A stretch of 64,000 bases of DNA from Alphaproteobacteria bacterium (lineage in GTDB: Bacteria; Pseudomonadota; Alphaproteobacteria; UBA9219; RFNS01). Below the pieces are notes generated by a model. It searched no databases. It was not told the DNA's origin and was given only the letters and a program-made list of their open reading frames with translations. A program made the position numbers and the translations under genes. Where the stretch lies: contig JBBCGY010000001.1 of the NCBI GenBank assembly GCA_037200005.1, positions 42,416 to 106,415 on the forward strand, given 5' to 3'. Of the stretch, positions 8,422 through 27,228 are shown one piece after another (the stretch's first letter is position 1; every line of letters begins with the position of its first letter).

Positions 8422-8503
8422 GAGGCTTGTGCCCTTGTTGGTTCTAAAATGCGCTTAACCGAGGCCAAACAGGCAACGGCATCGCAGTCCAAAGAGAAAA
8501 TCG

Positions 8504-11500
8504 ATGGTCGCTGACATTCAATACACCCAGCCGGAACCGAATTATGACGGATTCCGCGAAGCGCATGTTGAAGAAGCAACTTTCGATTGGCTCTCTGGGC
8601 TTGGCTGGACACTCGCGCATGGGCCGGATTTGGCACCGGAAGGCAAAGCCCCGGAGCGGGCCAGTTATGGCGACGTGCTGTTGTTGGGGCGGTTGAGGAC
8701 AGCCTTGGCCGCGATCAACCCGCAACTCCCCGCCGATGCGATTGACGACGTGGTGCGTAAGATTATCGCAGTCGAAATGCCGTCTTTGGTCGAAGAAAAC
8801 CGGCGCTTGCATAAACTGATGGTCGATGGCGTGGCTGTGCAATACATGCAGGCCGACGGCACGATCAAAAACGACATCGCGTGGCTGATCGACTGGGAAA
8901 ACAAAAAGAACGATTGGCTGGCCGTCAATCAATTCACGGTCATCGAAGAACGCAACAATCGCCGCCCCGACGTGGTGATGTTTATCAACGGTTTGCCCCT
9001 TGCCGTTATTGAATTGAAGAACGCGGGAGACGAAAACGCGACAATCGAAGGCGCGTTCCGCCAGACGCAAGCTTACAAGCAATTGATCCCTTCTCTGTTT
9101 CGCACGAACGGCATACTGATTATTTCCGACGGACTGAAAGCCCGCATCGGCAGCCTGACCGCAGATTATGAGCGTTTCATGCCATGGCGCACGGTGGATG
9201 GGGCCGGTGTCGCGGCCAAAGGAACGCCCGAATTACACACAATGATTCACGGCGTTTTTGAGCAAGGGCGTTTTCTGGAGTTATTGCGCCGGTTCACCGT
9301 GTTTCAAAGCAACGGCAAAGATATTTTCAAAATCGTAGCAGGATATCACCAGTTCCACGCCGTAAAGCTCGCCGTTGCCAGCACCATCGACGCAACGGCC
9401 AGTGAAGGAAATCGCAAAGTCGGCGTCATCTGGCATACGCAAGGATCGGGCAAAAGCCTGTTGATGGCATTTTATGCGGGCAGCGTGATTGCCAATCCTG
9501 CGATGGCCAATCCGACTCTGGTTGTGCTGACCGACCGGAATGATCTGGACGACCAGCTTTTTTAACACTTTCAGCCTATCTCGTGATCTTATCCGCCAGA
9601 CGCCCGCGCAAGCGGGAGATCGCGATGAATTGCGGAAGCTTCTGGCGGTATCATCTGGCGGCGTTATCTTTACGACCATTCAAAAATTTCTGCCCGCTGA
9701 TAGTGAAAAAACTTTCCCGCTGTTGACTGACCGCAAGAATGTCATCGTCATCGCCGATGAAGCGCACCGCAGCCAATATGGCTTCAAGGCCAAGTTGGAT
9801 AAAAAGTCGGGCGAATTAGCTTATGGTTTTGCGAAACACCTGCGCGATGCGCTGCCGAATGCGTCCTTCATTGGCTTTACAGGAACGCCTATTGAGAAAG
9901 CAGATGTCAATACGCCCGCCGTATTCGGCGATTATATTGATGTCTATGATATTCAACGCGCGGTCGAAGACGGCGCGACGGTGCCAATCTATTACGAAAG
10001 CCGCCTAGCCAAACTCCAGCTTGACGAAGAGGAAGTCAAAAATCTTGATGCTGAGGTCGAAGAACTGACCGAAGACGAAGAATCCAGCGAGCGCGAGCGT
10101 AAGAAAAGCAAATGGTCGCGCGTTGAAGCCCTGTGGGAGCCGAAACACGCTTGGCTCAAGTAGCCGCCGATATTGTTCAGCATTTTGAGAACCGTATCAG
10201 CGCCTTAGACGGCAAAGGCATGACCGTATGCATGAGTCGCCGTATTTGCGTGGCGCTCTATAACGAGATTATTAAATTACGGCCCGCATGGCATTCAGAC
10301 GATGACGCGCAAGGCGCTATCAAGATTGTGATGACGGGCAATATCGCCAACGATCCGCCTGAATGGTTGAAACATACGGGCAGCAAGGCGCGCCGTGATT
10401 TCCTGGCAAAGCGGGCGCGCGACGCTAAAGACCCGCTAAAACTTGTTATCGTTCGTGATATGTGGCTTACGGGCTTTGATGCGCCCTGCATGCACACGAT
10501 GTATGTCGATAAGCCGATGCATGGTCATGGCTTGATGCAGGCCATTGCCCGTGTAAATCGCGTATTCCGCGACAAGCCAGGCGGCTTGATCGTTGATTAT
10601 ATCGGGATTGCCCATAATCTGAAACAAGCTCTCTCTATTTATTCCCCCGGCGACCGCGAAGAAGTCGGCATTGACGAGCAGCAAGCCGTCGCAGAGATGA
10701 TGCGCCGCTATGAAATCGTCCGGGATATGTTTTATGGATTCGATTATATGCGCGCGCTGCACGGCACACCGGCTGAACGCTTAGTGCTGATGGCCGAGGC
10801 TCTGGAGTGGATTCTCGATTTGCAGCAACGTGAAGCTGCAAAAGAACAGACCGAACAAGCCAGGAAAGAGGTGCGCCGCAAATTCTCAGACGCCGTTGTT
10901 GGCTTATCGCGCGCCTATGCGCTGGCCGCAACCTCGCCAGAAGCGGGGAAAATTCGTGATGAAGTCGGTTTCTTCCAGGCTATTCGTGCAGCCCTGGCAA
11001 AAAATGAGCCGGGCAAAGGTAGCACACAGGCGGAAATCGATGTGGCCGTCCAACAAATGGTCAGTCGTGCCGTGGTGTCAACGGAGATTGTCGATATTCT
11101 GGCGGCGGCAGGCATTAGAACCCCGGATATATCCATCCTCTCAGATGAATTTCTGGCAGAAATTCAAGGCATGAAGAAGCGTAACCTTGCATTGGAAGCC
11201 TTACAGAAACTCATCAATGGAGAAATAAAATCCCGCATCAAATCGAACGTGGTGCAATCTAAGAAATTCAGCGAACGACTGGAAGCCGCCGTCCGGCGCT
11301 ATCATAACAACGCTATAACTGCCGCGCAGCTTTTGGAGGAGCTGATTGCCATCGCAAAGGATATTAAAGCTGACCGCGAACGAGGAGAAGAACAAGGACT
11401 TAGCGAAGAGGAAATCGCTTTTTATGATGCTCTGGCTGAAAATGAAAGCGCATTGCAGTTGTTGGGCGATGAGAAATTACGAGTGATTGCTACTGAACTG

Positions 11501-11680
11501 GTTGTCTCCGTTCGCAATAATGTGTCTGTTGACTGGATGCACCGCGATAGCGCCCGCGCCAAGTTGCGCATCGAAGTCAAAAAGATTCTCAAGAAATATG
11601 GCTATCCGCCAGATTTACAGGATGCAGCGGTGCAACTGGTGTTGCAGCAGGCCGAAGTTTTGGCCCCACTCTGGGCATAA
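8504..11680 (+). pseudogene. hsdR: type I restriction enzyme R subunit (HsdR), disrupted by two frameshifts (~9555 and ~10140)
   Basis: Three consecutive ORFs (frames 2/3/2) cover an HsdR: N-terminal domain, DEAD-box helicase motifs 'HTQGSGKS', '[12 protein letters not shown]', 'FTGTP', C-terminal domain. First break is in a T6 run (ctttttt; dropping one T reads DDQLFNTF). Second is a 1-nt loss at 'ctgtggga' (restoring g gives [17 protein letters not shown]). Confidence 0.85.
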
Positions 11681-11772: not shown

Positions 11773-12903
11773 TCAAAGCGCCAGCCGGGGCCGGATTAGC
11801 GACAAAGGCCGGGCAGTGGAAAGCTGGAGGCCAACAGCTTCGTTTGGAACATTGGAAAAATCGGTAATAAGCGGCAGCATGGCGTTAGGGCCAAGGGCGC
11901 GTGGTGAGGCACCTAGTTCTTTAAGAGCGGAAACAATTTCCGGTTCATTTAGCGCATGAATGCGCATAAGGGGTTGCGTAGTGTCAGGAATCCATTTCCT
12001 GCGCGAGACTTCATCGCGGCCCGTCGAGATAAGTGCCGCGACCACGTCCTTGAGTTTGTCGCCTTTCGGCAGATTGCCGTTGCTGGTGATTTGAGCGCGG
12101 ACAATCGGCTCGCCCAGGAAGGTCGAAATGGCTTCCGTAAAACTGGCGGCGATTTTCTGATTGCCGTCCTCACTTTGCCAATTCGCCAGGAACACATTTG
12201 GCAAGCTGGAGTCTTTGCCGGGTTTCGCGGCGAAGTCCGCGAGCTGGATTGCAACTCGTGAGCGGCCCGTTTCAATGGGCGCATCGCCGATAAATTCCAG
12301 AACGGCGCTATCGTCCGGCGCTCCCATCGTCGCACCGAGTTTCTTGAAGATGCCGGTCATGGCCGCATTGCCGCCCGCATATTCGCCGACGCGGCCGCGC
12401 GAGACGAGGCCATAGGGCGAATAGCCTTGTTCGCGGCTGACGGATCGCCGGATTTTCTCGTAGATAAAATGCGAGCCAAGTCCAATGCCATTCGGGTATT
12501 CCGCGCTTTTTGTGCGATTACGGAATTCCTGGGATAGTTCCGGCGACACATAGGTATCTTCGCCATAGATAGCAGGATAATGGCGGAAATCCCGGCCATT
12601 GCGTTCCGTGAGAACGGTCGGAAACTCGATTGAGCCACCGGCGAGTTTGGGGCTGCAATTTTCCCACTCCACGATGGCGAAATAAGCCTGAATTTTATTT
12701 TTCTTGATGGCCTCGATAACTTTGCCGAATTTGGCGTTATCAGCGGACGCTCCATGCGTCACGGCTTCACTTTCGACGATTCTATAAAGAATCTCATCAA
12801 GCGCCATATGATGAACGACGTCCGTACCGTTCATGCGCACGATGCTGGCTTTGGCGTTTCCCGGCAGCAGACCGGGCATATTATCGAGCGCAACGGAAGA
12901 CAT
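11773..12903 (-). CDS. hypothetical protein, family A (paralog of 24000-25298)
   Basis: 376 aa; shares blocks with the 432-aa protein at 24000 (KLAGGSIEFPTV/KLAGAAIELPTV, HYPAIYGEDT, YPNGIGLGS/YPNGLGLGT, KIAASFTEAISTF, PIVR.Q.TSNGNLP.GD, MRIHAL.EPEIV.ALK.LGA.PR.LGP); immediately downstream of the HTH regulator gene (2-nt gap). Confidence 0.6.
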   Translation of the reverse strand: MSSVALDNMPGLLPGNAKASIVRMNGTDVVHHMALDEILYRIVESEAVTHGASADNAKFGKVIEAIKKNKIQAYFAIVEWENCSPKLAGGSIEFPTVLTERNGRDFRHYPAIYGEDTYVSPELSQEFRNRTKSAEYPNGIGLGSHFIYEKIRRSVSREQGYSPYGLVSRGRVGEYAGGNAAMTGIFKKLGATMGAPDDSAVLEFIGDAPIETGRSRVAIQLADFAAKPGKDSSLPNVFLANWQSEDGNQKIAASFTEAISTFLGEPIVRAQITSNGNLPKGDKLKDVVAALISTGRDEVSRRKWIPDTTQPLMRIHALNEPEIVSALKELGASPRALGPNAMLPLITDFSNVPNEAVGLQLSTARPLSLIRPRLAL

Positions 12904-13817: not shown

Positions 13818-13990
13818 ATGACCAATTCATTTAACGCTTATGTCATGCGCCAGGGCGAACCGGCCATTACCGCCATCATCGAAAATTGGGAAAGGCTTGT
13901 CGGCTTGCGGGCCGAGGCCGAAACGCCGCTTGAGCAGCGCTGGGCGGCGATGATGCATGGTTATGAGCCACAGGCAATGGCAGTCGCATG
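13818..13990 (+). CDS. small hypothetical ORF (57 aa), first gene of a small-gene operon
   Basis: ATG after 'aggggaatttcag' RBS-like sequence; stop overlaps the next ORF start (ATGA); not in the supplied ORF track (<60 aa). Confidence 0.3.
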
Positions 13991-14278
13991 AGCCGGAAAG
14001 CCGAAAAACCTTTCAGCCCGGTTGACGAGATGCAGCTTTCTCAGCCGATGGGCAATCGAACCGCCGAACATTTCCGCGATGCCCTGGATGATTTGGAGCA
14101 TGAGGCGACCGCGCAGGACGCAAAAATAAAGCAATTGCGCCAAGCTATTCTGCAACGCGCACAAGAACTCGACACTACCGTTTGCCAATCCTGGCTGGAT
14201 TCAGAAATCGAAAAAGCGGACCACCTCGCGTTGGAAGCGCGGCTGGAAAAACTCATCAAGTTCCTATCGGAAAAATGA
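13988..14278 (+). CDS. hypothetical protein (96 aa, predicted helical)
   Basis: ORF translationally coupled to flanking small ORFs. Confidence 0.4.
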   Translation: MSRKAEKPFSPVDEMQLSQPMGNRTAEHFRDALDDLEHEATAQDAKIKQLRQAILQRAQELDTTVCQSWLDSEIEKADHLALEARLEKLIKFLSEK

Positions 14279-14493
14279 TGATGGCGAATTTTCATGAACG
14301 CCCCATGACATATAAAAAGCTCGTCGCTCGTTACGGCCATGACATGGCTTTCGATTTACTCGTCACTATCGAGAGCCTTGCGAAGATTAAGCACGACATC
14401 ATCGAGATCAACGAAGAAATTCGTCTGCAACGCGCGCTGGAAGTTTTGGACGAGGCGGAATTCGGACAGGCAGATAAAGGCGGGGTCAAATGA
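14275..14493 (+). CDS. hypothetical protein (72 aa)
   Basis: ATG cluster 'atgatgatgg' overlapping the previous stop; stop overlaps the LuxR-type gene start. Confidence 0.35.
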   Translation: MMMANFHERPMTYKKLVARYGHDMAFDLLVTIESLAKIKHDIIEINEEIRLQRALEVLDEAEFGQADKGGVK

Positions 14494-14738
14494 TTTCCGG
14501 TAATAACATACCCAATAAAAAGCTTGCGCCGCGTGAAATCGAAGTCATGACCTTAACGGCGCGTGGCAAGACGACCACCGAAATTGCAATGCTTCTCTCG
14601 ATTGCCGAGGATACAGTTAAGACTCACATCAAACGATCCTGCCAGAAATTGAACGCGGCCAATAAAACACACGCCGTTGCTCTCGTTATGGCTCGCGGCA
14701 TAATAGAATGTTCCTGTTGTCACCCGAAAGGGGGATAG
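14490..14738 (+). CDS. LuxR/GerE-type HTH DNA-binding protein (stand-alone)
   Basis: 'LAPREIEVMTLTARGKTTTEIAMLLSIAEDTVKTHIKRSCQKLNAANKTHAV' matches the GerE/LuxR C-terminal HTH consensus. Confidence 0.6.
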   Translation: MISGNNIPNKKLAPREIEVMTLTARGKTTTEIAMLLSIAEDTVKTHIKRSCQKLNAANKTHAVALVMARGIIECSCCHPKGG

Positions 14739-14820: not shown

Positions 14821-17800
14821 ATGGTGGCACCTGCGAAGAAATTTCACGAAGCGAACGGCGAACTCACCAATGAGGCAGGGGCAACGCGACCGCCGCTCTC
14901 GAGGAACAGCCTCTGGCGGACACTGCGCCCCGGGATCTCGGTGGGAGTAAGCCTCGCGGCAGTCGTCGCTTGCGAAAGCGGCGAACCCAACGCTTCAAAT
15001 GACAACATCGTTTCGATTTCCCAAGCGATAGGCTCTGCGACAATCTATAGCTTGCCTACCAATGTTTTGATGCCCAATGCCATCAATAATCAAAATCTCA
15101 TTGTGGGCCAGGGTCTGCCTTCGATCTATGATGCCAACACGGGAACATTTAGTAGCCTTGAAGTAAACCAGCCTTCGGGGGCGGTCACTTCCTATGCAAT
15201 TAGCAATGCCGGTCACGTTGTCGGCAATTCATTCAATGTTGGGCCGGTTTCCAATTCGGCGTTCATTTCACAGGGCGGACATTTGTCCGATCTATACGCC
15301 GGCAACAACAACGGGGTGACCAGCGTCGCTTACGGCGTCAACAATTATGGCCAAGTCGTCGGCACGATGCCGGTGACGGTCAACGATGCGAACAATAGTC
15401 CACATCCTTTCACGCATGCGTTCTCGTGGCAGGGCAGCGTTACAGACCTTACACCGAACTACTATGGAAATTCAGCCGCCTATGGCATCAACGATGCTGG
15501 GCAGATCGTGGGAACGATAGGAACTGCGGGGGTCAAGTGGCAGGGCGGATCGTCAAGCACGCTGCCGAGCGGCACCAGCACGCCCGCCATGATCAACAAT
15601 GTCGGTCAGATCGTCGGGACATATAGTTCAGGCGGTTCGTCGCACGCTTTCCTTGTGCAGAGCGGCACCCTGACCGATCTCGGAGCCATACAGGGAAGCA
15701 CACCTGTGAGGATCAACAACAAAGGACAAGTTACGGGCGGCTTCTACAACACGGGTGCCGGACAATATTACCCGAGCGTCTGGCAGAATGGCGTCGTGGT
15801 TACGATTCCCACTCTGTCGGGCATTCCCGCAGGCTGGTCTATCACGTCGATAAACGGCATCAATGACAGCGGAACCGTCGTAGGGCAAGGCACGCTTTCG
15901 GGTTCTTCACGGGGTTTTTACCTAACTTCGCCGCAGCTTCTGAACTACGCCATTGCCGGAAAGCCCTACGATCCGAAAGCGAATGGTGGTGAGGATTCGG
16001 CGTCAACCCCGACAGACGATCTATGTGGAACTCATGGCATGTGTGTGCCCAACGCGCAATTGCTGTCGGCCAGCTTGAATTTGAACGATACGCCGATTGG
16101 GTATCAGCCGCCCAAAGGGCCACCAGCCTATATCCGGCTTACATATAATCATCGTGACAGTGTCGCGCCCAGCAGCACTTCCTCGCATGTTGGGCCAAAC
16201 TGGACTCTGAATGTCATTTCTTACATTCAGGATGATCCGGCCAGCCCGGGCCAGAGCGTCACGCGCAACGTGGCGGGCGGCGGTATCGTCGACTACACTT
16301 TTGAGGCAGGGCAGTTCAATACCACCACGGGTGCATTCGGGCCGGAGAAGCAAACCGGGGCGATCTTGAAACGGACTCCCGCGACAGGGTTCAGCGCCAG
16401 TGCTTCCTATGAGCTTTCCTTTCCCGATGGGGCCAAGCAAATATTCTCCTACCCGGATGGAAGCTTCAATTATCCGCGCCGCGCATTCCTGACGGATATC
16501 GTTGATGCCTCAGGCCAGGGCCTGCATTTTGGCTACAATTATCTTCAAGGAACTTTCGGCGCGATCAATTGCACGCCGGGATGTCCGCAACTGCAATCAG
16601 TTTCTGATGCTAATTTCCGTGCAACAAACTTCGTCTACGGTGACGCATCTAATGTCTTGCGCGTGACGCGGATTAATGACCCGTTCGGGCGTCACGCCGA
16701 TTTAGCTTATGATGGCAGCGGACGGCTTTCGTCAATCACGGATGTGATCGGCATTCAATCGTCTTTCACCTATGACACCACCGACCCTACTTTCATCAAA
16801 AAGCTAACGACACCCTATGGCGATAGCAATTTCGTCTTTGGGCAAGATACGGCGACGGATCGTCGTTGGCTCACACTCTCCGATGCCGTGGGCAATACGG
16901 AAAAAGTGGAATACCGGGGCAGCAGCGCCAGCGGCATAGCGGCGTGCGACAAAAACACGAGCGATGCGTCGTGCAGTGTCTCGACCTCCGTGCCGACAGG
17001 CATGCCTAACGGCATCAATAACGCCGATCTCGACAAGCGCAACACCTTTGTCTGGAACAAATGGATGTATGCGAATGGCTATGGCAGCGATTACACGCAG
17101 GCGAATGTTACCCATTGGCTCAAGGACGGTGCGGGCAATCCCGTGGGGATTCCGGAAAGCGTCAAGCCGCTGTACGAATCCCGCATTTGGTATAATTATC
17201 CCGGCCAGAACGATCCTAGCACCCCAGGAACCCTGTCTGTGCCGAGGGCGACGGGCCGCGTGATCACCGATCCGCTTTACGGGCAAGCGCCGCAGAATCA
17301 GGTTTACCAAAGTCAATATAACAGCCTCGGCAAGCCCACCTTGACCGTCGATCCCTACAAGGTTTCAGGCAACAACAATGAAGGCCGAACTACACGCATG
17401 ACCTATGATGCCTCCGGCGTCGATCTTTTGACGGTGGAACAGAAAACCGGCAGCGGAACGCCGGGGACATGGGCGACGATTGCTTCCTACGTCTATACCG
17501 ATCCGACAGAACAGCCCACATCGATCCACAAACCGATCCGCTATACCGACGCGGCGGGGCAAACTTATAAATTCAAATACAATGGCGACGGCCAATTGAT
17601 CTATGCCGCCAATCCCTACAACGATACGACGTATAATGAATATCATCCGTCCGGCAAGCTCCTGCGGACGACCATGCCTGTGCCGAGCGTAAACTGGAAT
17701 ACCATCGATTATGGAACCGATATTAACGGCGCGCCGACGGGGGCGAGCAACAGCAGCGCCCTAAGGGACACCGCCATTACCTACGACTCCGCCGATCGTC

Positions 17801-20202
17801 CGTATGACGTGACCGACCGGATGGGTCTGGTGAAGCGTTTCGGCTACGACAATCTCGACCGGGTAACGCGGGTGGATTACGCCCCCGGCACGGCGGGCAC
17901 GACCTATGAGACGAACACCTATACCAACCTCGACCTGACATCGCACCGCGACCGGCTTGGCCGGGTTAGCACCGATGTTTACACGGCGAACCGGCAGCTG
18001 TGGCTGAGCTTCAATGCTTCGGGAACGCGGCGGGGCTTCACCTATTACCCGAACGGCGCGCTACAAGGCTACTACGACGAGAACGACCATCCTACAATCT
18101 ACGGCATCGACGGCCAGGGACGCGCCAACGCCGTCGTCTATCCCAATGGCAACCAGACGAATTACTACTACGATGATGGCGGGCGGATGCGCACCATTGT
18201 CGATCTCGACGGCTCGAACCAGCGCTGGCGGAACATTAAATATAACGTCGATAATAGCGTCCATATCCGCGACTATACCAACCCGGCAAATCCGTCCGAT
18301 CCCGTGGTTCTGGCGACGACAACCGCGACCTTCACCTACGATCCATGGTTCCCCGGACAAATGACTTCAATGGCCGATGCCAGCGGAACGACCAACTATA
18401 CATACAAAACCGTAGGCACCGTCGGCGCCTTACAACTCGCGACCGAAAATCCGCCGACGGTAAGCGGCGACGCGGATAAAATCACCTACACCTATGACCA
18501 GAAGGGACGGCTCGCCTCGCGCCAGATCGGTATCGGCACGGCGAGCGTGCTGCCGCAGGAAAGCTGGGTGCGCGACACCTATGGCCGCATTAACAGGCAC
18601 ATCATTCCCGACGGCAACCTGTTCTATTACGACTTCAACGGCGCGAGCAATCAGGTGACAATGCGCGCGTTTCGCAATCAGGCGCTGACGGAGATCGACC
18701 CGCTGAATACGCGCACGATGATGAGCTACGACACGGCGGCGAACGACTCGCGGCTGCTGACGATCAACAACCCGCCCTACGACAACAGCGCGCCCGGCGC
18801 GCGGGACTTCACCCTCAATTGGGGATCGTCGCCCGCCAATCCGTACGTTCCGGCGACGATCACCGACTCCGCTGGAGGCCCCGGCGGGGCGTGGGGACAG
18901 CGGGTGTGGACGATGGGCTATGACGCGCGCGACCGGCTGACCTCGGCGGTCGCCGCCGACCGCAGCTATTCGTTTACCCTGGACGCGCCGGGCAACGCGA
19001 CGAGCTTCACCAGCACGCACTATCCGAGCGGCGGGCTGTATAGCTTTAACTCGACCTACAACACGTCGAACCAGATGACGGTGGCGAACGGCAACGCGCT
19101 GATCTACGACCCCTACGGCAACCTCGTCACCCACACGAACTACCGCAGCTTCAAGTACGACGCCGAGAACCGCCTGATCGAGGTCGACTTCCCCGCCGCG
19201 CCCGCCGACAAGGTTGAGATGCAATATGACGGTCTTGGTCGCCGCACGCAGATCAAATCCACCATCGGCGGCGTCGTCACGACGCGGAACCTGCAATGGT
19301 GCGCCCAGACGACCTCGCCGCCGTTCCAGGGCGCGGCGGAAGAGATATGCGTCGAGCGCGACGCATCGGGCGGCATGCAGCGCATGGTCTATCCCGAGGG
19401 CGAATATCGCGCCAACGGCGGCCGGTACTTTTATGAACGCGACCAGACCGGCAACATCCGCGACGTGATGAAGATGGCGGCGGGATTGACGACCGCCGCG
19501 CGCGATAGCTCCTTCAACTACACGCCTTATGGCGGCGTCGACGGCAAAGACGGCACTGCCGAGCCGCTGCAGCAGTTCGCGGGACTGCTGTATGAGAAGA
19601 ACAGCAACCTGTTCCTCTCCCGCACCCGCGCCTATGCCCCATGGATCGGCAGATGGCTCCAGCGCGATCCGATTGGGCAGAATGGGGGGAGTAATGTTTA
19701 TGAGTATGCGGGGGCGAGTCCGATTAACAAGATTGATCCGAGCGGGTTGCAGGGGGTGCGACCTGGGTTAATAGAAACGATGCGACCTACAATAGGAGTG
19801 CCACCAGCAGCGGGGATCAACGAGGGGGCAGGAAATTACGCCGATTATCTTCAAGAAAATGGAGAAATGATGGGTGATCTAGCCACCCTTTATAGGGCCA
19901 CTAGCGCGGCGGTTGCCGGTGCGAGCAACCAATCAATGCGAGAGGATATTGAAAAAGCAAAAGTATGCACATCGTTTGGAAACAGCATGTCGGCGGATCA
20001 GCCGTTATGGTGCGGGCCTGGCGGATGCGCGGATAGCGTCAGGCAGCAGTGGCTGGATGCGACCGGCGGCTTAGTGTATCCACAAATCATCGAGTCTTTC
20101 AAAAAGAGGTTTGAACCGGCTCCCTCGCGGCTTGTGTCGACGCCGATGCGTGGCAATGACTTCGGTAATTCGGTTTTATTCCCTAATGTGGGCCCAGGTT
20201 AG
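14821..20202 (+). CDS. RHS/YD-repeat toxin with N-terminal HAF-type extracellular repeats and a C-terminal variable toxin domain
   Basis: 1793 aa. N-terminal repeated 'GINDAGQIVG' and 'HAFLVQSGTLTDLG' motifs (HAF-repeat-like); many YD-type repeats (YDxxGRL, YTYD, YDALGR). RHS core end motif 'YEYAGASPINKIDPSGL' is followed by a ~150-aa Cys-containing CT domain. Confidence 0.9.
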   Translation: MVAPAKKFHEANGELTNEAGATRPPLSRNSLWRTLRPGISVGVSLAAVVACESGEPNASNDNIVSISQAIGSATIYSLPTNVLMPNAINNQNLIVGQGLPSIYDANTGTFSSLEVNQPSGAVTSYAISNAGHVVGNSFNVGPVSNSAFISQGGHLSDLYAGNNNGVTSVAYGVNNYGQVVGTMPVTVNDANNSPHPFTHAFSWQGSVTDLTPNYYGNSAAYGINDAGQIVGTIGTAGVKWQGGSSSTLPSGTSTPAMINNVGQIVGTYSSGGSSHAFLVQSGTLTDLGAIQGSTPVRINNKGQVTGGFYNTGAGQYYPSVWQNGVVVTIPTLSGIPAGWSITSINGINDSGTVVGQGTLSGSSRGFYLTSPQLLNYAIAGKPYDPKANGGEDSASTPTDDLCGTHGMCVPNAQLLSASLNLNDTPIGYQPPKGPPAYIRLTYNHRDSVAPSSTSSHVGPNWTLNVISYIQDDPASPGQSVTRNVAGGGIVDYTFEAGQFNTTTGAFGPEKQTGAILKRTPATGFSASASYELSFPDGAKQIFSYPDGSFNYPRRAFLTDIVDASGQGLHFGYNYLQGTFGAINCTPGCPQLQSVSDANFRATNFVYGDASNVLRVTRINDPFGRHADLAYDGSGRLSSITDVIGIQSSFTYDTTDPTFIKKLTTPYGDSNFVFGQDTATDRRWLTLSDAVGNTEKVEYRGSSASGIAACDKNTSDASCSVSTSVPTGMPNGINNADLDKRNTFVWNKWMYANGYGSDYTQANVTHWLKDGAGNPVGIPESVKPLYESRIWYNYPGQNDPSTPGTLSVPRATGRVITDPLYGQAPQNQVYQSQYNSLGKPTLTVDPYKVSGNNNEGRTTRMTYDASGVDLLTVEQKTGSGTPGTWATIASYVYTDPTEQPTSIHKPIRYTDAAGQTYKFKYNGDGQLIYAANPYNDTTYNEYHPSGKLLRTTMPVPSVNWNTIDYGTDINGAPTGASNSSALRDTAITYDSADRPYDVTDRMGLVKRFGYDNLDRVTRVDYAPGTAGTTYETNTYTNLDLTSHRDRLGRVSTDVYTANRQLWLSFNASGTRRGFTYYPNGALQGYYDENDHPTIYGIDGQGRANAVVYPNGNQTNYYYDDGGRMRTIVDLDGSNQRWRNIKYNVDNSVHIRDYTNPANPSDPVVLATTTATFTYDPWFPGQMTSMADASGTTNYTYKTVGTVGALQLATENPPTVSGDADKITYTYDQKGRLASRQIGIGTASVLPQESWVRDTYGRINRHIIPDGNLFYYDFNGASNQVTMRAFRNQALTEIDPLNTRTMMSYDTAANDSRLLTINNPPYDNSAPGARDFTLNWGSSPANPYVPATITDSAGGPGGAWGQRVWTMGYDARDRLTSAVAADRSYSFTLDAPGNATSFTSTHYPSGGLYSFNSTYNTSNQMTVANGNALIYDPYGNLVTHTNYRSFKYDAENRLIEVDFPAAPADKVEMQYDGLGRRTQIKSTIGGVVTTRNLQWCAQTTSPPFQGAAEEICVERDASGGMQRMVYPEGEYRANGGRYFYERDQTGNIRDVMKMAAGLTTAARDSSFNYTPYGGVDGKDGTAEPLQQFAGLLYEKNSNLFLSRTRAYAPWIGRWLQRDPIGQNGGSNVYEYAGASPINKIDPSGLQGVRPGLIETMRPTIGVPPAAGINEGAGNYADYLQENGEMMGDLATLYRATSAAVAGASNQSMREDIEKAKVCTSFGNSMSADQPLWCGPGGCADSVRQQWLDATGGLVYPQIIESFKKRFEPAPSRLVSTPMRGNDFGNSVLFPNVGPG
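18992..19752. repeat. direct repeat copy 1 (3' part of RHS core), ~99% identical to 21503-22263
   Basis: identical antisense ORFs 19140-19385 and 21651-21896 in the track; aligned offset 2511 nt; the few mismatches give G->D and K->R differences. Confidence 0.85.
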
Positions 20203-20206
20203 TCCT

Positions 20207-21478
20207 ATGAAAAAGTTTACTCTATTGCTTGTCGCGCTTTGTAGTCTGACAATGTTACCGGCTCATGCCGCTGACCAAGACTCCAAACCACCCGTCATTG
20301 ATATTCCTGCCACGCGAAAAGAGGCGGAGTCTGGAGATGCTCGGGCTCAATATAATCTGGGCATAGCTTATCTCAACGGTTACGGGGTGAAGAAAAATAA
20401 AGATGAAGCTATTGAATGGATTTACAAAGCAGGGAAGAACAATGATGCCCTCGCAATATATTTCTTGGGCAGCGCATATCATGATGGCGACCTTTTGCCA
20501 CAAGACTACGCCAAGGCTATGAAGTGGTATCACAGGTCCGATGAATTATACGGCAGTCCCCTTGCGCAGAATATGCTTGGCGTGATGCACGAAAACGGTC
20601 AGGGGGCTCCACAGAATTATGAAGAAGCGGCTAGGTGGTATCGCAAAGCTGCCGAGAATATTTACGCACCGGCTCAATCCCATCTTGGATTCCTATACTA
20701 CGCTGGACGCGGCGTTCCTAAGGACGATCAAAAGGCTCTATATTGGCTTAAGAAAGCAGCCATACAAAACGATGCGCCAGCAAAGCTTATGCTAGGCATT
20801 ATGCACTATAAAGGCGAAGGAGTGGAAAAGAATTACGTTAAAGCTGTCAGCTATTTTCGCGAAGCCGCAGACGTCGGAATATCGATAGCTGAACGATATT
20901 TGGGAAATATGTATTACCACGGCGAAGGCGTTTCCAAGGATGAAGCCCAGGCTGTGTCTTGGTGGCGCAAAGCCGCCGAACAAGGGGATAGGGAGTCGGA
21001 AAAGATCATAGGTGGTATGTACTATTATGGCACAGGAGTGTCGAAGGATTTTTCCCAAGCCGTTTTATGGTGGCAAAAAGCTGCGGAAAAGGGTGATGTC
21101 GATGCTCAATGCAACTTGGCGAAAGCTTACTATCATGGAGAAGGTATAGGAAAAGATGAAACTCAAGCTGTGTTATGGTGGCGGAGGGCCGCGGCACAAG
21201 GACATGGAGAATCCCTCCTTTATTTAGGACAAGCGTATTTTAGTAGCATAGGCGTATCGCAAGATGATGTGCAGGCTTATATATGGCTAAGCTTGGCGGC
21301 TACAAGAAATCAGTCGTCAGCGGTTGCAACACTCACGGAACTCGAAAAGTCCATGACGCCGGAACAAATCGCTGAAGCCAGAAAACGCGTGGCAGAATGG
21401 AAACCCAAGCCTGAGCCAAAGCCTGCCCCAATAGGGCCAATACCCGAAATTCTAAAAGAAGTCCGTGAAGATTTATGA
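20207..21478 (+). CDS. Sel1-repeat (SLR/TPR-like) periplasmic protein, probable cognate immunity protein for the RHS CT toxin
   Basis: Starts 5 nt after the RHS stop; signal peptide MKKFTLLLVALCSLTMLPAHA; ~9 Sel1 repeats (AQYNLGIAYLNGYGVKKN..., AxxWYRKAAE...); start taken at an internal Met of ORF 20111-21478. Confidence 0.75.
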   Translation: MKKFTLLLVALCSLTMLPAHAADQDSKPPVIDIPATRKEAESGDARAQYNLGIAYLNGYGVKKNKDEAIEWIYKAGKNNDALAIYFLGSAYHDGDLLPQDYAKAMKWYHRSDELYGSPLAQNMLGVMHENGQGAPQNYEEAARWYRKAAENIYAPAQSHLGFLYYAGRGVPKDDQKALYWLKKAAIQNDAPAKLMLGIMHYKGEGVEKNYVKAVSYFREAADVGISIAERYLGNMYYHGEGVSKDEAQAVSWWRKAAEQGDRESEKIIGGMYYYGTGVSKDFSQAVLWWQKAAEKGDVDAQCNLAKAYYHGEGIGKDETQAVLWWRRAAAQGHGESLLYLGQAYFSSIGVSQDDVQAYIWLSLAATRNQSSAVATLTELEKSMTPEQIAEARKRVAEWKPKPEPKPAPIGPIPEILKEVREDL

Positions 21479-22668
21479 TCTCGACTTCGAGGATGCATTT
21501 GGGCAATGCGACGAGCTTCACCAGCACGCACTATCCGAGCGGCGGGCTGTATAGCTTTAACTCGACCTACAACACGTCGAACCAGATGACGGTGGCGAAC
21601 GGCAACGCGCTGATCTACGACCCCTACGGCAACCTCGTCACCCACACGAACTACCGCAGCTTCAAGTACGACGCCGAGAATCGCCTGATCGAGGTCGACT
21701 TCCCCGCCGCGCCCGCCGACAAGGTTGAGATGCAATATGACGGTCTTGGCCGCCGCACGCAGATCAAATCCACCATCGGGGGCGTCGTCACGACGCGGAA
21801 TCTGCAATGGTGCGCCCAGACGACCTCGCCGCCGTTCCAGGGCGCGGCGGAAGAGATATGCGTCGAGCGCGACGCATCGGGCGGCATGCAGCGCATGGTC
21901 TATCCCGAGGGCGAATATCGCGCCAACGGCGACCGGTACTTTTATGAACGCGACCAGACCGGCAACATCCGCGACGTGATGAAGATGGCGGCGGGATTGA
22001 CGACCGCCGCGCGCGACAGCTCCTTCAACTACACGCCTTATGGCGGCGTCGACGGCAGAGACGGCACCGCCGAGCCGCTGCAGCAGTTCGCGGGACTGCT
22101 GTATGAGAAGAACAGCAACCTGTTCCTCTCCCGCACCCGCGCCTACGCCCCATGGATCGGCAGATGGCTCCAGCGCGATCCGATTGGGCAGAATGGCGGC
22201 GCGAATGTTTATGAATATGCGGGGGCGAGTCCGATTAACAAGATTGATCCGAGCGGGCTTCAAAGCATCCAGAATGCGGATGACTGGATAAAACAGAGAA
22301 ATGCCCCTGCTCAGCCGTCAAATAGTATTTGGAGTGAGATCCTAGATAAAATCAGAGAACCTGTGTCTAGAAATGAAGCCATTAGTGAGATTACAAATTT
22401 CCGTCAATCTGGAGAGGCCCAAACTGAAGCACAGATAGCTAGAATGCTCATGGGTTTACCCGTCGAACCTGATTTTTCTGTTGCTATAGGAGGGGCTGAA
22501 GGTGAGCAAGATCTTGGCAGAGCGATTATGTCGGTAGCGCGCGAGATTTTGCGCCGCCCTGCGGAGCAGTCGTGCCCAATAGTTCAGAGAAAAGTCTTCG
22601 GTCAATCCTTGCCACCAAGTGATTTTGGTGACAAGAATCTCCCACTGCCATCTATATTAACCCTTTAA
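21475..22668 (+). CDS. orphan RHS C-terminal module (core tail + alternative CT toxin domain)
   Basis: ATGA overlap with the preceding Sel1 gene. After a 9-aa unique leader, residues match RHS 1391-1644 nearly identically through 'DPSGLQ', then diverge into a different ~135-aa C-terminal domain. Confidence 0.8.
   Translation: MISTSRMHLGNATSFTSTHYPSGGLYSFNSTYNTSNQMTVANGNALIYDPYGNLVTHTNYRSFKYDAENRLIEVDFPAAPADKVEMQYDGLGRRTQIKSTIGGVVTTRNLQWCAQTTSPPFQGAAEEICVERDASGGMQRMVYPEGEYRANGDRYFYERDQTGNIRDVMKMAAGLTTAARDSSFNYTPYGGVDGRDGTAEPLQQFAGLLYEKNSNLFLSRTRAYAPWIGRWLQRDPIGQNGGANVYEYAGASPINKIDPSGLQSIQNADDWIKQRNAPAQPSNSIWSEILDKIREPVSRNEAISEITNFRQSGEAQTEAQIARMLMGLPVEPDFSVAIGGAEGEQDLGRAIMSVAREILRRPAEQSCPIVQRKVFGQSLPPSDFGDKNLPLPSILTL
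21503..22263. repeat. direct repeat copy 2 (orphan RHS core tail)
   Basis: see copy 1. Confidence 0.85.
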
Positions 22669-22700
22669 AGAATATGAGTGGAATTGAGGGAGTTAATGCA

Positions 22701-23489
22701 ATGAAGAAGATAATTATTATTACGGCATTTGCTTTGATGGTCGCATCAGTTCAAGCTTATGCTGCCGTCCAGGATGAAAAAGCCGACAGTTTGTTAGGGC
22801 ATCGCCTGTCCGAACAATTACGGAAAACAGAAGCGCAGACAACTCTTGCTGCGGGAAAAGAGCTATTTAAAACAGGCGAAGGTCTTTCTAAGGATAATGT
22901 CGATGCAGTAAAGCTATTTCGCGTAGCTGCCAATCTTGGCTCGATGGAGGCACAAACAATTCTCGGCGCTGCATACCTTAGTGGCGATGGAGTGCAAAAA
23001 GATATTCCTGAAGCTTTAAAATGGATACAAAAATCTGCCGCCCAAGGAGACGCCAAGGCTCAACATTTATTGGGTGTATTGTATCATGAAGGATCAGACG
23101 TAAAAAAAGACAATGTGAAATCGTTAAAATGGATACGGAAAGCAGCGGAGCAAGGTTTGCCATCGGCACAATTTAGTCTTGGCACTATGCTTTCTAAAGG
23201 ATATGGAACACACCGAGATGAAACTTCAGCGATGGAATGGTTTCATAAATCCGCAAACCAAGGCTATGCTAAGGCCCAAATTATGCTCGGAATTGCATAT
23301 CACCTAGGTAAAGATATATCTAAAGACGATATTCTAGCTGATCAATGGCTGATATTGGCCGGGGAAAAAGAGGCACGTGATGATTTGGAAAAATCCATGA
23401 CCCCCGAACAAATCGCCGAAGCTATAAACCGCGCGGCGGAATGGAAGCCGAAACCACCAACCAAGCCCGATCCTGAATCCAAACCGTAG
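22701..23489 (+). CDS. Sel1-repeat periplasmic protein, probable immunity protein for the orphan CT toxin
   Basis: RBS 'gaggga' 9 nt upstream; signal peptide MKKIIIITAFALMVASVQAYA; Sel1 repeats; C-terminal tail 'EKSMTPEQIAEAINRAAEWKPKPPTKP' resembles the first Sel1 protein ('EKSMTPEQIAEARKRVAEWKPKPEPKP'). Confidence 0.7.
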   Translation: MKKIIIITAFALMVASVQAYAAVQDEKADSLLGHRLSEQLRKTEAQTTLAAGKELFKTGEGLSKDNVDAVKLFRVAANLGSMEAQTILGAAYLSGDGVQKDIPEALKWIQKSAAQGDAKAQHLLGVLYHEGSDVKKDNVKSLKWIRKAAEQGLPSAQFSLGTMLSKGYGTHRDETSAMEWFHKSANQGYAKAQIMLGIAYHLGKDISKDDILADQWLILAGEKEARDDLEKSMTPEQIAEAINRAAEWKPKPPTKPDPESKP

Positions 23490-23999: not shown

Positions 24000-25298
24000 A
24001 TGAATCAGGCATTTAACTCCGATCCCTATAAGCGCCTGCCCGGCGGCATCCGGGCGGCGGTTTTGCCGATGCAGGGGGCCGACCTTGTGCATCAAGCCAC
24101 GCTCGGCGCGGCGCTTGAGCATATCATCGGTCATGAGGCTGCGGTTCATGAAGCGGCTTTCCAAAGCCAGCATTTTCACAAGATTTTGAAGGCAAGCGAG
24201 AAAGGCGAAATCAACGTCCTTTTTCTTATGGCCGCGATGCATACATGTTTGCCGAAATTGGCGGGCGCGGCGATTGAACTTCCGACCGTCATTACGAAAT
24301 GGCAAGGCAACGAGTTTAAGCACTATCCCGCCATCTATGGCGAAGATACATGCGTTCTGCCGGAATTCTCCAAAACCTTCCGCGAAAAGACGGCGGGCGC
24401 GCTTTATCCTAATGGCCTGGGCCTTGGCACATGGTTCGCCAAAGAACGGATCGAAGGATCGGTATCGGGCCGCTCTGGGTTCGCGCCTCTCGGCATGGTG
24501 TCCCAAGGCCGTGTTTGTGAATATTCCGGGCATAACGGGCCGATGATTGGACTCTTGAACAAATTCGGTGCAACGACTGCGCCGGACGCGAGCGCAGTCC
24601 TCGAACTCGACGGCCTCACTCCCACGATGAAAAGCCGCTGGCAAGTGCCGGTCGATACTGAAGCCTTGGCCGATCAGAACGGCAAGCCCCTCGACAATAT
24701 TTTCGTAACGAGATGGTCAGGCGAAAGCGGCAAGCAACAAATCGCCGCAAGCTTTACGAAAACCATCTCCACCTTTACCGGCGATCCTATTGTGCGCGTT
24801 CAGCTAACGAGCAACGGCAATCTTCCGAATGGCGATATGCTGCAAAATGTACTATCTTCACTGCTGGCTGCCGGTCACGACGAAATCCGCGAGCGGAAAT
24901 GGGCCATAGCAGGCGAATTAAAAAGTGTTGCTAGCAACCGAAGCCCGATCATCCCGCTCCTTGCTTCCCGGCAGCAGCAAATGGCTGCGCTTCTGTCCGC
25001 AGGGCGAGATGAAATTCTATCCCGGCGTATCGGCATGGATGATTTAAGCCATATTTTCGGCGGCGCGGTTCCGACAATGCGGATTCATGCGCTCAGGAAG
25101 CCGGAAATAGTCGCGGCCTTGAAAGACTTAGGTGCACAACCCCGTATTCTCGGCCCCCACGTCATGCTGCCCGCGATTATGGACTTCGCCAATATGCCGC
25201 AGGAGGCGCTTAATTTCGATCTGCCCCCGGCGAGGCCGCTGAATACGGTCAATCATAGAGGCGCAACCAGCACGCCGCTTTTCTCTCTGGCGGCATAA
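24000..25298 (+). CDS. hypothetical protein, family A paralog
   Basis: 432 aa; conserved blocks shared with 11773-12903 (see that feature). Confidence 0.6.
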   Translation: MNQAFNSDPYKRLPGGIRAAVLPMQGADLVHQATLGAALEHIIGHEAAVHEAAFQSQHFHKILKASEKGEINVLFLMAAMHTCLPKLAGAAIELPTVITKWQGNEFKHYPAIYGEDTCVLPEFSKTFREKTAGALYPNGLGLGTWFAKERIEGSVSGRSGFAPLGMVSQGRVCEYSGHNGPMIGLLNKFGATTAPDASAVLELDGLTPTMKSRWQVPVDTEALADQNGKPLDNIFVTRWSGESGKQQIAASFTKTISTFTGDPIVRVQLTSNGNLPNGDMLQNVLSSLLAAGHDEIRERKWAIAGELKSVASNRSPIIPLLASRQQQMAALLSAGRDEILSRRIGMDDLSHIFGGAVPTMRIHALRKPEIVAALKDLGAQPRILGPHVMLPAIMDFANMPQEALNFDLPPARPLNTVNHRGATSTPLFSLAA

Positions 25299-25584: not shown

Positions 25585-25776
25585 ATGAGCCAGGAAGCAT
25601 ATCGCGTGAAAGAATTCTGCAACCGCTACGCCATTTCAAAAGCCAGCTTCTACCGGGAAACAGCGGCGAAGCGGCTGCATATCCTAAAACGTGGCCGTAC
25701 AACGCTCGTTGCCCGCACCGAAGCCGAACGCTGGTTTGAAAGCCTTGGCCAAGGCCAGCCGCAGCAATCAGCCTGA
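25585..25776 (+). CDS. AlpA/Xis-like DNA-binding protein (prophage CP4-57 regulatory family)
   Basis: 63 aa, 'KEFCNRYAISKASFYRETAAKRLHILKRGRTTLV' fits the AlpA HTH; strong RBS 'gggaggaag'; sits directly upstream of the integrase. Confidence 0.65.
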   Translation: MSQEAYRVKEFCNRYAISKASFYRETAAKRLHILKRGRTTLVARTEAERWFESLGQGQPQQSA

Positions 25777-25843
25777 TCGCATTCAATATCCCGAATATTT
25801 CCAAAGCCATTTTTCGTCAATCTTATTCTCATGGAGGCATGTC

Positions 25844-27031
25844 ATGCGCCATACGGGACATATTCGCCAGCGTTCAGAAGGGAGTTTCGAGCTTCGCTAT
25901 AGCATCGGCACCGATCCGGTCACGGGAAAATGGAAAGTCAAAACCGTCACCGTTAAGGGAACGCGCAAAGCTGCCGAGAAAGAATTGCGCCGCATACTCG
26001 ATGCAATCGATGACAATGATTATGTCGAACCCAATAAAATCACTACCCGTGATTTTTTGACACAATGGCTTGAAACAATGCGTTCCCAGATAACCCCCAA
26101 ATCCTATGAAAGCTACGCTGAAATAGTCGATAACTTCCTTATCCCAACTCTTGGCGGTCATATTCTGGCGAAACTTGCTCCGGCTGTTATCCAAAAAGCC
26201 TACAATGGATGGGAAGCTGGTGGCCGCAGGGATAAAAAGGCGGGCGGGCTGGCGGCGCGTTCCCGTCTCTATATCCACCGCATCCTTAAATCGGCACTCA
26301 AACATGCCGTGCAAATACAGCTAATCGCCCGCAATCCCGCCGACGCGGTTAAAGCGCCGCGCGTCAAGAAAGCCGCCATAACTACATTGACCGTGGATCA
26401 ATCGGCGGCGCTGCTCGATGCCCTGTCCGGCAAGCCGCTTTATTGGCCTGTGTTGCTTGCCCTAACAACGGGCATGCGCCGGGGTGAAATTCTGGCGCTT
26501 CGCTGGAAGAATATCGACTTTGAAAAGAAAACTGTTCGCGTCGTCGAAAGTCTAGAGCAAACCAACACAGGCATTCGCTTCAAGGCTCCGAAAACGGAAC
26601 GGAGTCGTGCCGTCATGTTGCCGGATTATGCCGTTGAAGAACTGCGGAGACTGAAAAAAGAACAGGAGAAAAAATTGTCGGAATCAGGAATCGGCCAAAC
26701 CACTGAAACGCTGGTTTGCGGTCGCTATGACGGCGAACCGCTATGGCCTACCTCACTTACGCATGAATTCGTGAAGGCCATGAAGAAACTGCCGAAACTG
26801 CCGCGCGCCAGATTCCATGATTTGCGCCATTCCCATGCCACGCAACTCCTGACAGCAGGAATCCATCCCAAAATCGCGCAAGAACGGCTGGGACATACCA
26901 CGATTACGACAACCCTAGACCTCTATTCCCATGCGACGGACACCATGCAAGACGAGGCTGCATCAAAGCTCGACAATGCCTTCCGTTCTGCTATAAAGGC
27001 CCGTTCCGACCAAGCGCCACGACTAGGATAA
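25844..27031 (+). CDS. int: tyrosine-type site-specific recombinase / phage integrase
   Basis: C-terminal catalytic signature 'RFHDLRHSHAT...LGHTTITTTLDLYSH' (R..HxxR..Y); N-terminal SAM-like domain; start taken at the internal ATG with 'ggaggc' RBS. Confidence 0.9.
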   Translation: MRHTGHIRQRSEGSFELRYSIGTDPVTGKWKVKTVTVKGTRKAAEKELRRILDAIDDNDYVEPNKITTRDFLTQWLETMRSQITPKSYESYAEIVDNFLIPTLGGHILAKLAPAVIQKAYNGWEAGGRRDKKAGGLAARSRLYIHRILKSALKHAVQIQLIARNPADAVKAPRVKKAAITTLTVDQSAALLDALSGKPLYWPVLLALTTGMRRGEILALRWKNIDFEKKTVRVVESLEQTNTGIRFKAPKTERSRAVMLPDYAVEELRRLKKEQEKKLSESGIGQTTETLVCGRYDGEPLWPTSLTHEFVKAMKKLPKLPRARFHDLRHSHATQLLTAGIHPKIAQERLGHTTITTTLDLYSHATDTMQDEAASKLDNAFRSAIKARSDQAPRLG

Positions 27032-27111
27032 ATTGGTTCTGTAGCAATTTCTGTAGCAAAATCGATTTTGCTTCCGGTAGGAATACTCTAAGTGTATGTT
27101 TTTGCTGATGT

Positions 27112-27187
27112 GACCTTGTAGCTCAGCCGGTAGAGCATCTGACTTTTAATCAGGGGGTCGCGGGTTCGAACCCCGCCGAGGTCACCA
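27112..27187 (+). tRNA. tRNA-Lys (anticodon UUU)
   Basis: 76-nt cloverleaf folded by hand: acceptor GACCTTG/CGAGGTC, D-stem GCTC/GAGC, anticodon loop CTTTTAA, T-arm GCGGG-TTCGAAC-CCCGC, encoded CCA. Confidence 0.9.
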
Positions 27188-27220: not shown

Positions 27221-27228
27221 GGTTATGA

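Follow-up and report, generated by a model that had tools for sequence, protein, structure and literature searches.

Rhs proteins are usually treated as cargo of the T6SS (type VI secretion system), and the delivery of Gram-negative Rhs proteins with signal peptides and of teneurin-like proteins (TLPs) is an open question (PMC13018210). In Xanthomonas and Ralstonia, such Rhs proteins have been connected with the T2SS (type II secretion system). All 56 Ralstonia family II Rhs proteins (RRhs family II) and the 180-member Xanthomonas family VIII (XRhs family VIII) were tied to gspG, and export by the T2SS was predicted for them (10.1101/2025.05.08.652813). The Rhs bacteriocin Bcn-A of Xanthomonas perforans is active in the supernatant, exceeds 100 kDa, loses its activity in an xpsD mutant, and was modelled as plug, propeller, and YD barrel (PMC7259588). 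Signal-peptide RHS toxins were placed under "T2SS" by Zhang et al. (2012). Here, a 64-kb stretch of DNA from an alphaproteobacterium (contig JBBCGY010000001.1; the whole stretch is called the window below) was analyzed, in which an rhs gene occupies positions 14821-20202. We found that this gene is an intact Rhs "toxin-in-a-shell" gene that carries a lipoprotein signal and a HAF-repeat propeller, not a T6SS adaptor, at its front. In our judgment, it probably belongs to an Rhs polymorphic toxin-immunity cassette that was gained by horizontal transfer and whose product would be exported via the general Sec pathway as a lipoprotein and not by a T6SS.

Like XRhs family VIII, RRhs family II, and Bcn-A, the window Rhs has a signal peptide, lacks PAAR, and ends in a tip delimited by DPxGL, with an immunity gene downstream; its shell is about 40% identical to that of a Ralstonia megaplasmid member. 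However, the XRhs VIII and RRhs II proteins have a TPR plus C39-like N-terminus and gspG-type neighbours, whereas the window Rhs combines a lipobox with a HAF propeller, lacks a gsp neighbour, and is carried by a tRNA-Lys island of an alphaproteobacterium. TLPs such as the Bacillus teneurin-like protein BiTLP are also secreted YD-shell toxins with a beta-propeller, and those of Gram-negative bacteria carry signal peptidase II (SPII) lipoprotein signals without a dedicated delivery machine, their route across the envelope being acknowledged as an open question (PMC13018210). The window Rhs likewise has a lipobox, VVAC. In TLPs, FN-plug, NHL propeller, and YD shell follow one another in this order. 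Because the propeller of the window Rhs is of the HAF type and precedes the plug, and because no NHL or TEN_YD-shell match was obtained in Pfam, we did not file it as a TLP. T6SS Rhs effectors (Pseudomonas protegens RhsA, Tre23, Tse5, and Tse15) share with it the toxin-enclosing YD shell, the C-terminal aspartyl autoprotease motif, polymorphic tips, and orphan modules. Nevertheless, they have a PAAR or VgrG-binding N-terminus, often EagR chaperones and a linkage to vgrG, and no Sec signal, and the window Rhs is the opposite on each of these points. WapA of Bacillus and Streptococcus is a Sec-dependent, T6SS-independent YD-repeat polymorphic toxin with a downstream immunity gene, as the window Rhs appears to be; in contrast, WapA comes from Gram-positive bacteria, where no outer membrane must be crossed, and its N-terminal domains bind the cell wall. 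Finally, the extracellular HAF-repeat/DUF3466 proteins (TIGR02913) contain the same repeats, and the window Rhs is 30-39% identical to stand-alone members. They have about 330-850 amino acids (aa), often a PEP-CTERM anchor, and no toxin, whereas here the HAF array is fused to an Rhs shell.

Architecture of the Rhs protein and its relatives

The open reading frame (ORF) of rhs runs uninterrupted through 5.4 kb and translates into 1793 aa, and all aa numbers refer to this long form. The strings quoted by the initial annotation, which had been made from the sequence alone, were all found in it (HAFLVQSGTLTDLG, GINDAGQIVG, SLAAVVAC, DPSGL, and CTSFGNSMSADQPLWCGPGGCADS), and its proposal of an Rhs toxin that carries HAF repeats at the N-terminus agrees with the family matches. 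These were RHS_repeat PF05593 (E=3e-24, Pfam), YD repeats TIGR01643 (E=1.3e-22, NCBIfam), Rhs_assc_core TIGR03696 (aa 1567-1643, NCBIfam), and HAF_rpt TIGR02913 (55-64 bits vs a cutoff of 22.65, NCBIfam). The DPSGL motif (aa 1639-1643), which delimits the tip as proposed initially, closes Rhs_assc_core, with RDPIG 22 residues ahead of it. This core end, RDPIG...NKIDPSGL, can be aligned residue for residue with the ends at which solved Rhs proteins and TcdB2-TccC3 undergo autoproteolysis. The two-Asp aspartyl autoprotease motif is intact, and the tip would be cleaved off behind DPSGL. At the other end of the protein, the lipobox-like signal suggested earlier was recovered by motif and hydropathy scans: the hydrophobic segment of aa 38-50 runs into V-V-A-C51 (VVAC, aa 48-51). 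Signal peptides were called throughout by this heuristic (regular expression and hydropathy).

The GenBank entry (MEJ0061671.1) is a 1639-aa form that starts at codon 155 and drops the signal peptide together with HAF repeats 1-2 (window 14821-15283). The long form looks right to us, because HAF repeats 1-2 fold confidently within the propeller described below, because Sec signals stand right before the HAF arrays of its homologues P0122 and P0129, and because a ribosome-binding site (GGGGAG, 8 nt upstream of ATG 14821) sits at the start of the long form. This alternative gene call aside, the exact protein is recorded once in the databases, on a 1.83-Mb contig of a metagenome-assembled genome (GCA_037975565.1).

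The N-terminal array consists of seven repeats of the type (I/V)N(N/D)xGQ(I/V)VG...HAF(L/S)W, arranged in tandem units of about 40 aa. An AlphaFold2 model of aa 52-400, built with 70 HAF homologues, was all-beta with about 29 strands (predicted local distance difference test, pLDDT, 85.8; predicted template modelling score, pTM, 0.84). Foldseek comparison of this model with the PDB returned beta-propellers only (template modelling score, TM, 0.4-0.56), the best matches being the Pizza6 designer proteins, the sensor domain of Mycobacterium tuberculosis PknD (NHL type), strictosidine synthase, and TolB. The array is therefore predicted to fold as a beta-propeller, whose closest solved folds are NHL-type propellers as in TLPs, at the modest TM values just given.

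The N-terminus is also rare. Among the 150 best relatives of the protein, only P0122, P0126, and P0129 share the HAF type, giving four sequences with the window Rhs. All three exceed the TIGR02913 cutoff and are 35-43% identical to the window Rhs through HAF repeats, linker, and plug; P0122 and P0129 start with the Sec signals mentioned above. Since three other HAF-Rhs proteins pass the cutoff and align across HAF repeats, linker, and plug, the fusion is a small subfamily and not an assembly accident. The combination of lipobox and HAF propeller is a previously undescribed N-terminal module on Rhs, and a lipid-anchored HAF propeller in place of a delivery module would point to a testable display or binding role for the uncharacterised HAF family. 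Word-index searches with the N-terminus and the plug region turned up proteins with HAF repeats alone or short pieces of Rhs, and no fusion of the two. Proteins of the HAF-only kind also dominated the output of a metagenome scan made with the HAF-Rhs alignment. One locus of that scan, L043, resembled a fusion and proved to be a HAF protein with a different C-terminus, and another, L010, is a TPR-C39 Rhs.

The wider relationships were taken from an exhaustive HMMER search with aa 1-1200 against 1.84 billion representatives, which gave 22,119 matches; figures for the clade refer to the best 150 of these 22,119. The best 150 were 35-46% identical to the window Rhs from about aa 380 on, that is, from the plug into the shell. 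Their N-termini mostly opened with a hydrophobic signal-like stretch, several had lipoboxes, and none of the nine tested contained PAAR. Clustering assigned 92 of the 121 relatives that have an N-terminal region to one family, tested members of which matched Peptidase_C39 and TPR, and smaller groups were Cys-rich or BNR-like. A pre-plug motif, TTPxD...C...GM, was common to clade members with different N-terminal domains, and G406 and M407 were invariant in all four HAF-Rhs proteins. The window Rhs is thus placed as a member of a signal-peptide, T6SS-independent branch of the Rhs polymorphic toxin superfamily. When the genome collection, whose representatives do not include the source genome, was scanned with aa 301-860, a single distant locus from an Akkermansia metagenome-assembled genome was found, and a comparison of the plug region with the PDB matched YD repeats only, showing no similarity to FN-plug.

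Table 1.— Features of the rhs cassette and its surroundings in the 64-kb window
Feature	Positions	Strand	Basis
Three small ORFs (57, 96, and 72 aa), head of a putative operon	13818..14493	+	ATGA overlaps
Stand-alone GerE/LuxR-type helix-turn-helix (HTH) gene, 82 aa, ending 82 nt before rhs	14490..14738	+	Pfam GerE, E=1.3e-17
rhs gene: putative lipoprotein signal, predicted HAF propeller, YD shell, C-terminal toxin	14821..20202	+	ORF, translation, domain and motif scans
Putative signal peptide with lipobox, aa 1-51 (h-region 38-50; V-V-A-C51)	14821..14973	+	Regular expression and hydropathy
Seven HAF repeats, aa 88-375, predicted beta-propeller	15082..15945	+	TIGR02913, repeat register, AlphaFold2, Foldseek
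Pre-plug motif STPTDDLCGTHGMC, aa 396-408, with Cys402 and Cys408	16006..16044	+	Clade alignment
Plug and YD-repeat shell, aa 409-1643; core/autoprotease aa 1567-1643, RDPIG...x18...DPSGL	16045..19749	+	RHS_repeat, YD_repeat_2x, Rhs_assc_core
C-terminal toxin domain, aa 1644-1793; 3 Cys; isoelectric point 4.9	19750..20202	+	No family match
Immunity candidate 1: Sel1-repeat protein, 423 aa, Sec signal peptide (AHA/AD)	20207..21478	+	Pfam Sel1, 9 stretches, E=1e-85
Orphan rhs fragment, 397 aa: last ~260 aa of shell and a different 135-aa tip (1 Cys)	21475..22668	+	Rhs_assc_core
Immunity candidate 2: Sel1-repeat protein with signal peptide, likely start Met10 (22701)	22674..23489	+	Pfam Sel1, E=1.7e-40
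Tyrosine recombinase (island integrase)	25691..27031	+	Phage_integrase and SAM-like N-terminal domain
tRNA-Lys(UUU), 27112-27187; 5' part within right repeat copy, 27109-27150	27109..27187	+	ARAGORN

Probable export route of the Rhs protein

Considering that T6SS substrates are loaded in the cytoplasm, a cleavable Sec/SPII signal is not expected on them. The search for genes of this system, by scanning or through precomputed Pfam labels, covered every called gene between about 9 kb left of the window and 35 kb, as well as 20 further ORFs out to 64 kb. No T6SS gene (PAAR, vgrG, hcp, eagR, or tss) was found in the 64-kb window or in about 9 kb to its left. Hence the initial annotation was right that neither PAAR, VgrG, nor Hcp is encoded within 15 kb on either side, as far as the called genes there are concerned. 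The full Rhs protein and its N-terminus, where a PAAR or adaptor domain would have spoken most directly against that annotation, contained no PAAR, VgrG, DUF4150, or T6SS adaptor domain in Pfam and NCBIfam searches. Delivery by a T6SS is therefore unlikely, both because no such domain or gene was found in the protein, in the window, or just left of it, and because the signal would be unexpected on a substrate loaded in the cytoplasm. Three further genomic contexts of clade members contained no T6SS genes either.

The clade points instead to the T2SS. Relatives were present in 127 records of a plasmid collection, mostly Ralstonia megaplasmids. On the Ralstonia solanacearum plasmid CP052083.1 (L009 1-13594), a TPR-C39-type Rhs that is 40% identical to the window Rhs over aa 329-693 of the latter stands head to head with a cluster of gspG, T2SS-F, T2SS-E, four small genes, and a secretin gene; behind the Rhs gene comes that of a small multi-pass membrane protein, likely its immunity protein. 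Two routes had been left open initially, a T6SS encoded elsewhere and T6SS-independent export. The first is disfavoured by our results, while the second, in a Sec-dependent form, is best supported, because the putative lipoprotein signal, the signal-peptide clade, the gspG links of Ralstonia, and the T6SS-free contexts all point to it. Export of the window Rhs is thus most likely Sec-dependent and T6SS-independent, and a lipoprotein of about 190 kDa would then cross or decorate the outer membrane.

We give little credence to the idea that a T6SS, a VgrG, and an adaptor encoded elsewhere load the protein as a PAAR-less Rhs whose hydrophobic N-terminal stretch is no signal peptide. Rhs effectors without PAAR have been put forward, such as RhsP (in a paper since retracted), our survey spans part of the genome, and the GenBank start omits the signal. 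However, HAF repeats 1-2, with the lipobox and h-region shortly before them, precede the GenBank start and fold confidently in the propeller, and homologues have Sec signals at the same place. Moreover, the window holds neither a T6SS gene nor an adaptor domain, and the shell clade is a signal-peptide clade with links to the T2SS and not to the T6SS.

Several points weigh against Sec-dependent export as a lipoprotein. The n-region of the signal peptide is unusually long (37 residues), position -3 of the lipobox is Val and not Leu, and the start chosen by the GenBank annotators leaves the signal peptide out. The survey for T6SS and T2SS genes covers 64 kb plus short flanks of the 1.83-Mb contig. 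No gspG or other T2SS gene adjoins the window rhs. The only secretin system of the window, a cluster at 46.6-56.7 kb, looks pilus-like and not T2SS-like. The literature that can be searched says next to nothing about HAF repeats and records no function for them. Expression, lipidation, secretion, cleavage, and toxicity of the window Rhs are predicted from sequence.

The secretin cluster encodes a TcpQ-like protein, a secretin, PAP_PilO, a T2SS-E-type ATPase, and a T2SS-F-type platform protein; its GC content is host-like, and a T4SS_TraI gene lies nearby at 58.7-59.6 kb (46636-59618 in all, reverse strand). The presence of PAP_PilO, TcpQ, and T4SS_TraI suggests a type IVb (R64/PAPI-1-like) pilus that belongs to an integrative conjugative element. 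Given these type IVb conjugative pilus markers, a T2SS serving the Rhs protein was rejected as the less likely reading of the cluster.

Toxin tip, immunity genes, and cysteine residues

The 150-aa tip found no homologue in a search of 5.8 billion proteins or among PDB sequences. Neither the 150 clade representatives nor any of the fetched loci contained one, and Pfam gave no match at E<=1. Its single-sequence AlphaFold2 model was unusable (pLDDT 34.5). The gene behind rhs, the first immunity candidate, starts at ATG 20207 (MKKFTLLLVALCSLTMLPAHA/AD) and not at the overlapping TTG 20111, and read from this ATG the protein opens with a typical Sec signal, so the signal peptide attributed to it earlier was retained. 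The orphan rhs fragment that follows ends in a tip unrelated in sequence to the first, and the possibility that the two tips (150 aa and 135 aa) are relatives was rejected. Their coding DNA is nevertheless preceded by nearly the same sequence: 21501-22257 is 98% identical to 18990-19746 (757 bp), and the two copies diverge exactly after DPSGL. The two immunity candidates are 35-42% identical to each other. The phospholipase PldB has known immunity proteins that are Sel1-like and periplasmic (PMC13133936).

Few of 52 clade tips (alignment A2) had a Pfam match. The matches were Tlde1 (2), YkuD, Zn phospholipase C, lipase/alpha-beta hydrolase families, glycine zipper, YbjQ_1, and a plant cysteine-rich domain, and the tip of the HAF-Rhs protein P0126 belonged to those matching lipase/alpha-beta hydrolase families. 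No nuclease, deaminase, or ADP-ribosyltransferase (ART) was matched among the 52 tips with Pfam, unlike the usual spectrum of T6SS Rhs tips, and various unannotated tips appeared Gly/Ala-rich and hydrophobic by eye. Since both immunity proteins have signal peptides and the clade tips with a Pfam match are mostly envelope-acting, the window tip fits a toxin that acts on the envelope or periplasm, in line with the periplasmic target inferred by the initial annotation. With its Sel1 partner, neither of them having known relatives, it is a candidate for a new envelope-acting toxin-immunity pair. It must be set against this that the tip has no recognisable family and that envelope action is argued from the immunity signal peptide and from analogy with the clade.

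Two other functions for the protein were weighed. A surface or periplasmic protein for adhesion or cell-cell recognition, with a teneurin-like social role and a tip that is not mainly an antibacterial weapon, is improbable. Such a role would suit the combination of propeller, YD shell, and lipoprotein signal, which resembles Gram-negative teneurin-like proteins with discussed signalling roles (PMC13018210), and HAF proteins are typically extracellular repeat proteins. However, the intact autoprotease motif, the hypervariable tip, two cognate-looking immunity genes, and the 98%-identical orphan tip together make up the signature of a polymorphic toxin. A toxin directed at a eukaryotic host or grazer, like the Tc toxins or RhsT, would be compatible with a tip that matches no family in searches, but it appears quite improbable in view of the dedicated immunity genes with periplasmic targeting and the orphan tip-immunity pair; neither a TcA- or TcB-like partner nor an SpvB or TcdB domain was found with Pfam and NCBIfam.

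Returning to the exported antibacterial toxin, we picture its action as follows. The lipobox signal, visible in the sequence, would carry the protein over the inner membrane, where Cys51 may be lipidated. The mature protein would consist of a flexible linker, the seven-repeat HAF propeller, a Cys-containing pre-plug linker, and the YD shell around the 150-aa tip, which the aspartyl protease of the shell, its motif being intact, presumably cuts behind DPSGL. The complex might then reach the surface or the medium, for which Bcn-A and the gspG-linked Rhs proteins of Xanthomonas and Ralstonia offer the best, T2SS-type, precedent, and, as has been suggested for the teneurin-like proteins of Gram-negative bacteria, the lipid anchor could keep the toxin attached to its producer. 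The HAF propeller is most likely a binding or display module that replaces the TPR plus C39-like module of most clade members. The tip would hit the envelope (periplasm or membrane) of neighbouring bacteria, and the exported Sel1-repeat protein would neutralise it in the periplasm of sister cells. Recombination over the 757-bp stretch of 98% identity could replace the current tip with the orphan tip and its immunity gene.

Cysteine residues suggested a further step. When clade tips were delimited by profile, the number of Cys was odd in 96 of 104 (binomial p=2.8e-20), and when they were delimited by motif, in 47 of 51; only 1 of the 104 had no Cys at all. These parities were counted within the signal-peptide Rhs clade. 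Cys made up 2.5% of the clade tips vs 0.55% of the rest of the same proteins. Both window tips were odd, with 3 (19750-20199) and 1 (22261-22665). Elsewhere in the protein, the shell has a conserved pair (C1494/C1510), and the column of the pre-plug residue C402 contained Cys in 37 of 45 sequences, often with a second Cys a few residues off within TTPxD...C...GM. In the structure of BiTLP solved by cryo-electron microscopy, a disulfide joins the plug residue C719, which precedes the N-terminal autocleavage site by four residues, to C2216 in the enclosed C-terminal toxin domain, a link that was called surprising and was described in this one protein (PMC13018210). Because of the odd tip counts, the conserved pre-plug Cys, and the BiTLP disulfide, we propose, as a weaker part of our interpretation, that a plug-to-toxin disulfide may be general in the secreted Rhs clade. 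Here it would tether the tip to the fragment bearing the HAF propeller, one of the three tip Cys possibly bonding Cys402 or Cys408. The restriction of the counts to one clade weighs against this proposal, as does the finding that the Cys parity of the pre-plug region plus shell singles out, by itself, no partner for the odd tip Cys. Plasmid-borne Rhs genes were considered as a T6SS-type control for parity and were dropped, the loci being too few and their secretion type ambiguous.

A bolder version of this idea, which we regard as rather unlikely as a whole, is that the HAF-Rhs proteins and the wider signal-peptide clade are self-contained two-chain toxins. After export and two autocleavages, the binding module (in the window Rhs, the lipid-anchored HAF propeller) would stay disulfide-linked to the encapsulated toxin via the pre-plug Cys and the odd tip Cys, thiol-disulfide exchange with the second pre-plug Cys would free the toxin at the target envelope, and the 150-aa tip would represent a new family of envelope-acting toxins. 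If this were true, the odd-Cys rule would mark, at the level of sequence, a release mechanism that secreted YD-shell toxins share in general. Such a regularity, if confirmed, would also make the tethering and release of toxins easy to approach by experiment throughout a large clade.

Genomic island and neighbouring genes

The left part of the window has a GC content of about 50% and the right part of about 62%. A 42-bp perfect direct repeat, formed by the 5' part of tRNA-Lys(UUU), occurs at 27109-27150 and again 4.56 kb left of the window start (L005 4347-4388), where the GC content also shifts (0.50/0.62). Judged by the integrase, the tRNA-Lys, the 42-bp direct repeats, and the GC shift, the rhs cassette rides on a mobile, low-GC integrative island of about 31.7 kb at tRNA-Lys, bounded by these repeats and with the integrase beside the tRNA. 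This island is small and has no secretion genes, and we therefore argue that the cassette may need nothing beyond ubiquitous export machinery, a point that bears on the spread of such weapons. A second repeat of 22 bp lies near the 42-bp copies (27037-27058 and L005 4503-4524), and an imperfect palindrome of 93 nt (27157-27249) comprises the tRNA-Lys 3' end and downstream sequence, with an inverted partial copy of the T-arm inside it.

Directly upstream of rhs, the initial annotation had placed three tiny ORFs and a LuxR-type HTH. All of these are real, and the last matches GerE. The small ORFs (13818-13991, 13988-14278, and 14275-14493) are translationally coupled with the HTH gene (14490-14738). 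None of the three small ORFs had a Pfam match at E<=0.01, and no DNA similar to the four-gene operon was found in the plasmid collection. Because no sigma-70-like site was found between the HTH gene and rhs, co-transcription of the two is plausible.

Positions 2332-11680 are taken up by a type I restriction-modification system with hsdM, hsdS, a 517-aa ORF, an inserted Fic/SoFic gene, and an hsdR that is broken up into three ORFs (8504-9565, 9540-10163, and 10133-11680). That rhs, too, is an inactive remnant on a decaying island, as this split hsdR and the singleton status of the protein in the databases (alternative gene call aside) might suggest, is highly improbable, since its 5.4-kb frame is unbroken, its ribosome-binding site is good, its catalytic motif and immunity genes are intact, and its propeller folds well. 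The rhs cassette is flanked by two inverted paralogues that are 44% identical and have no Pfam match, at 11773-12903 (reverse strand, 376 aa) and 24000-25298 (forward strand, 432 aa). The left one is paired with an XRE-type HTH gene, and two more pairs of an HTH gene and a gene of about 320-420 aa lie on the same island just left of the window (L005 4533-5801 and 6475-7425).

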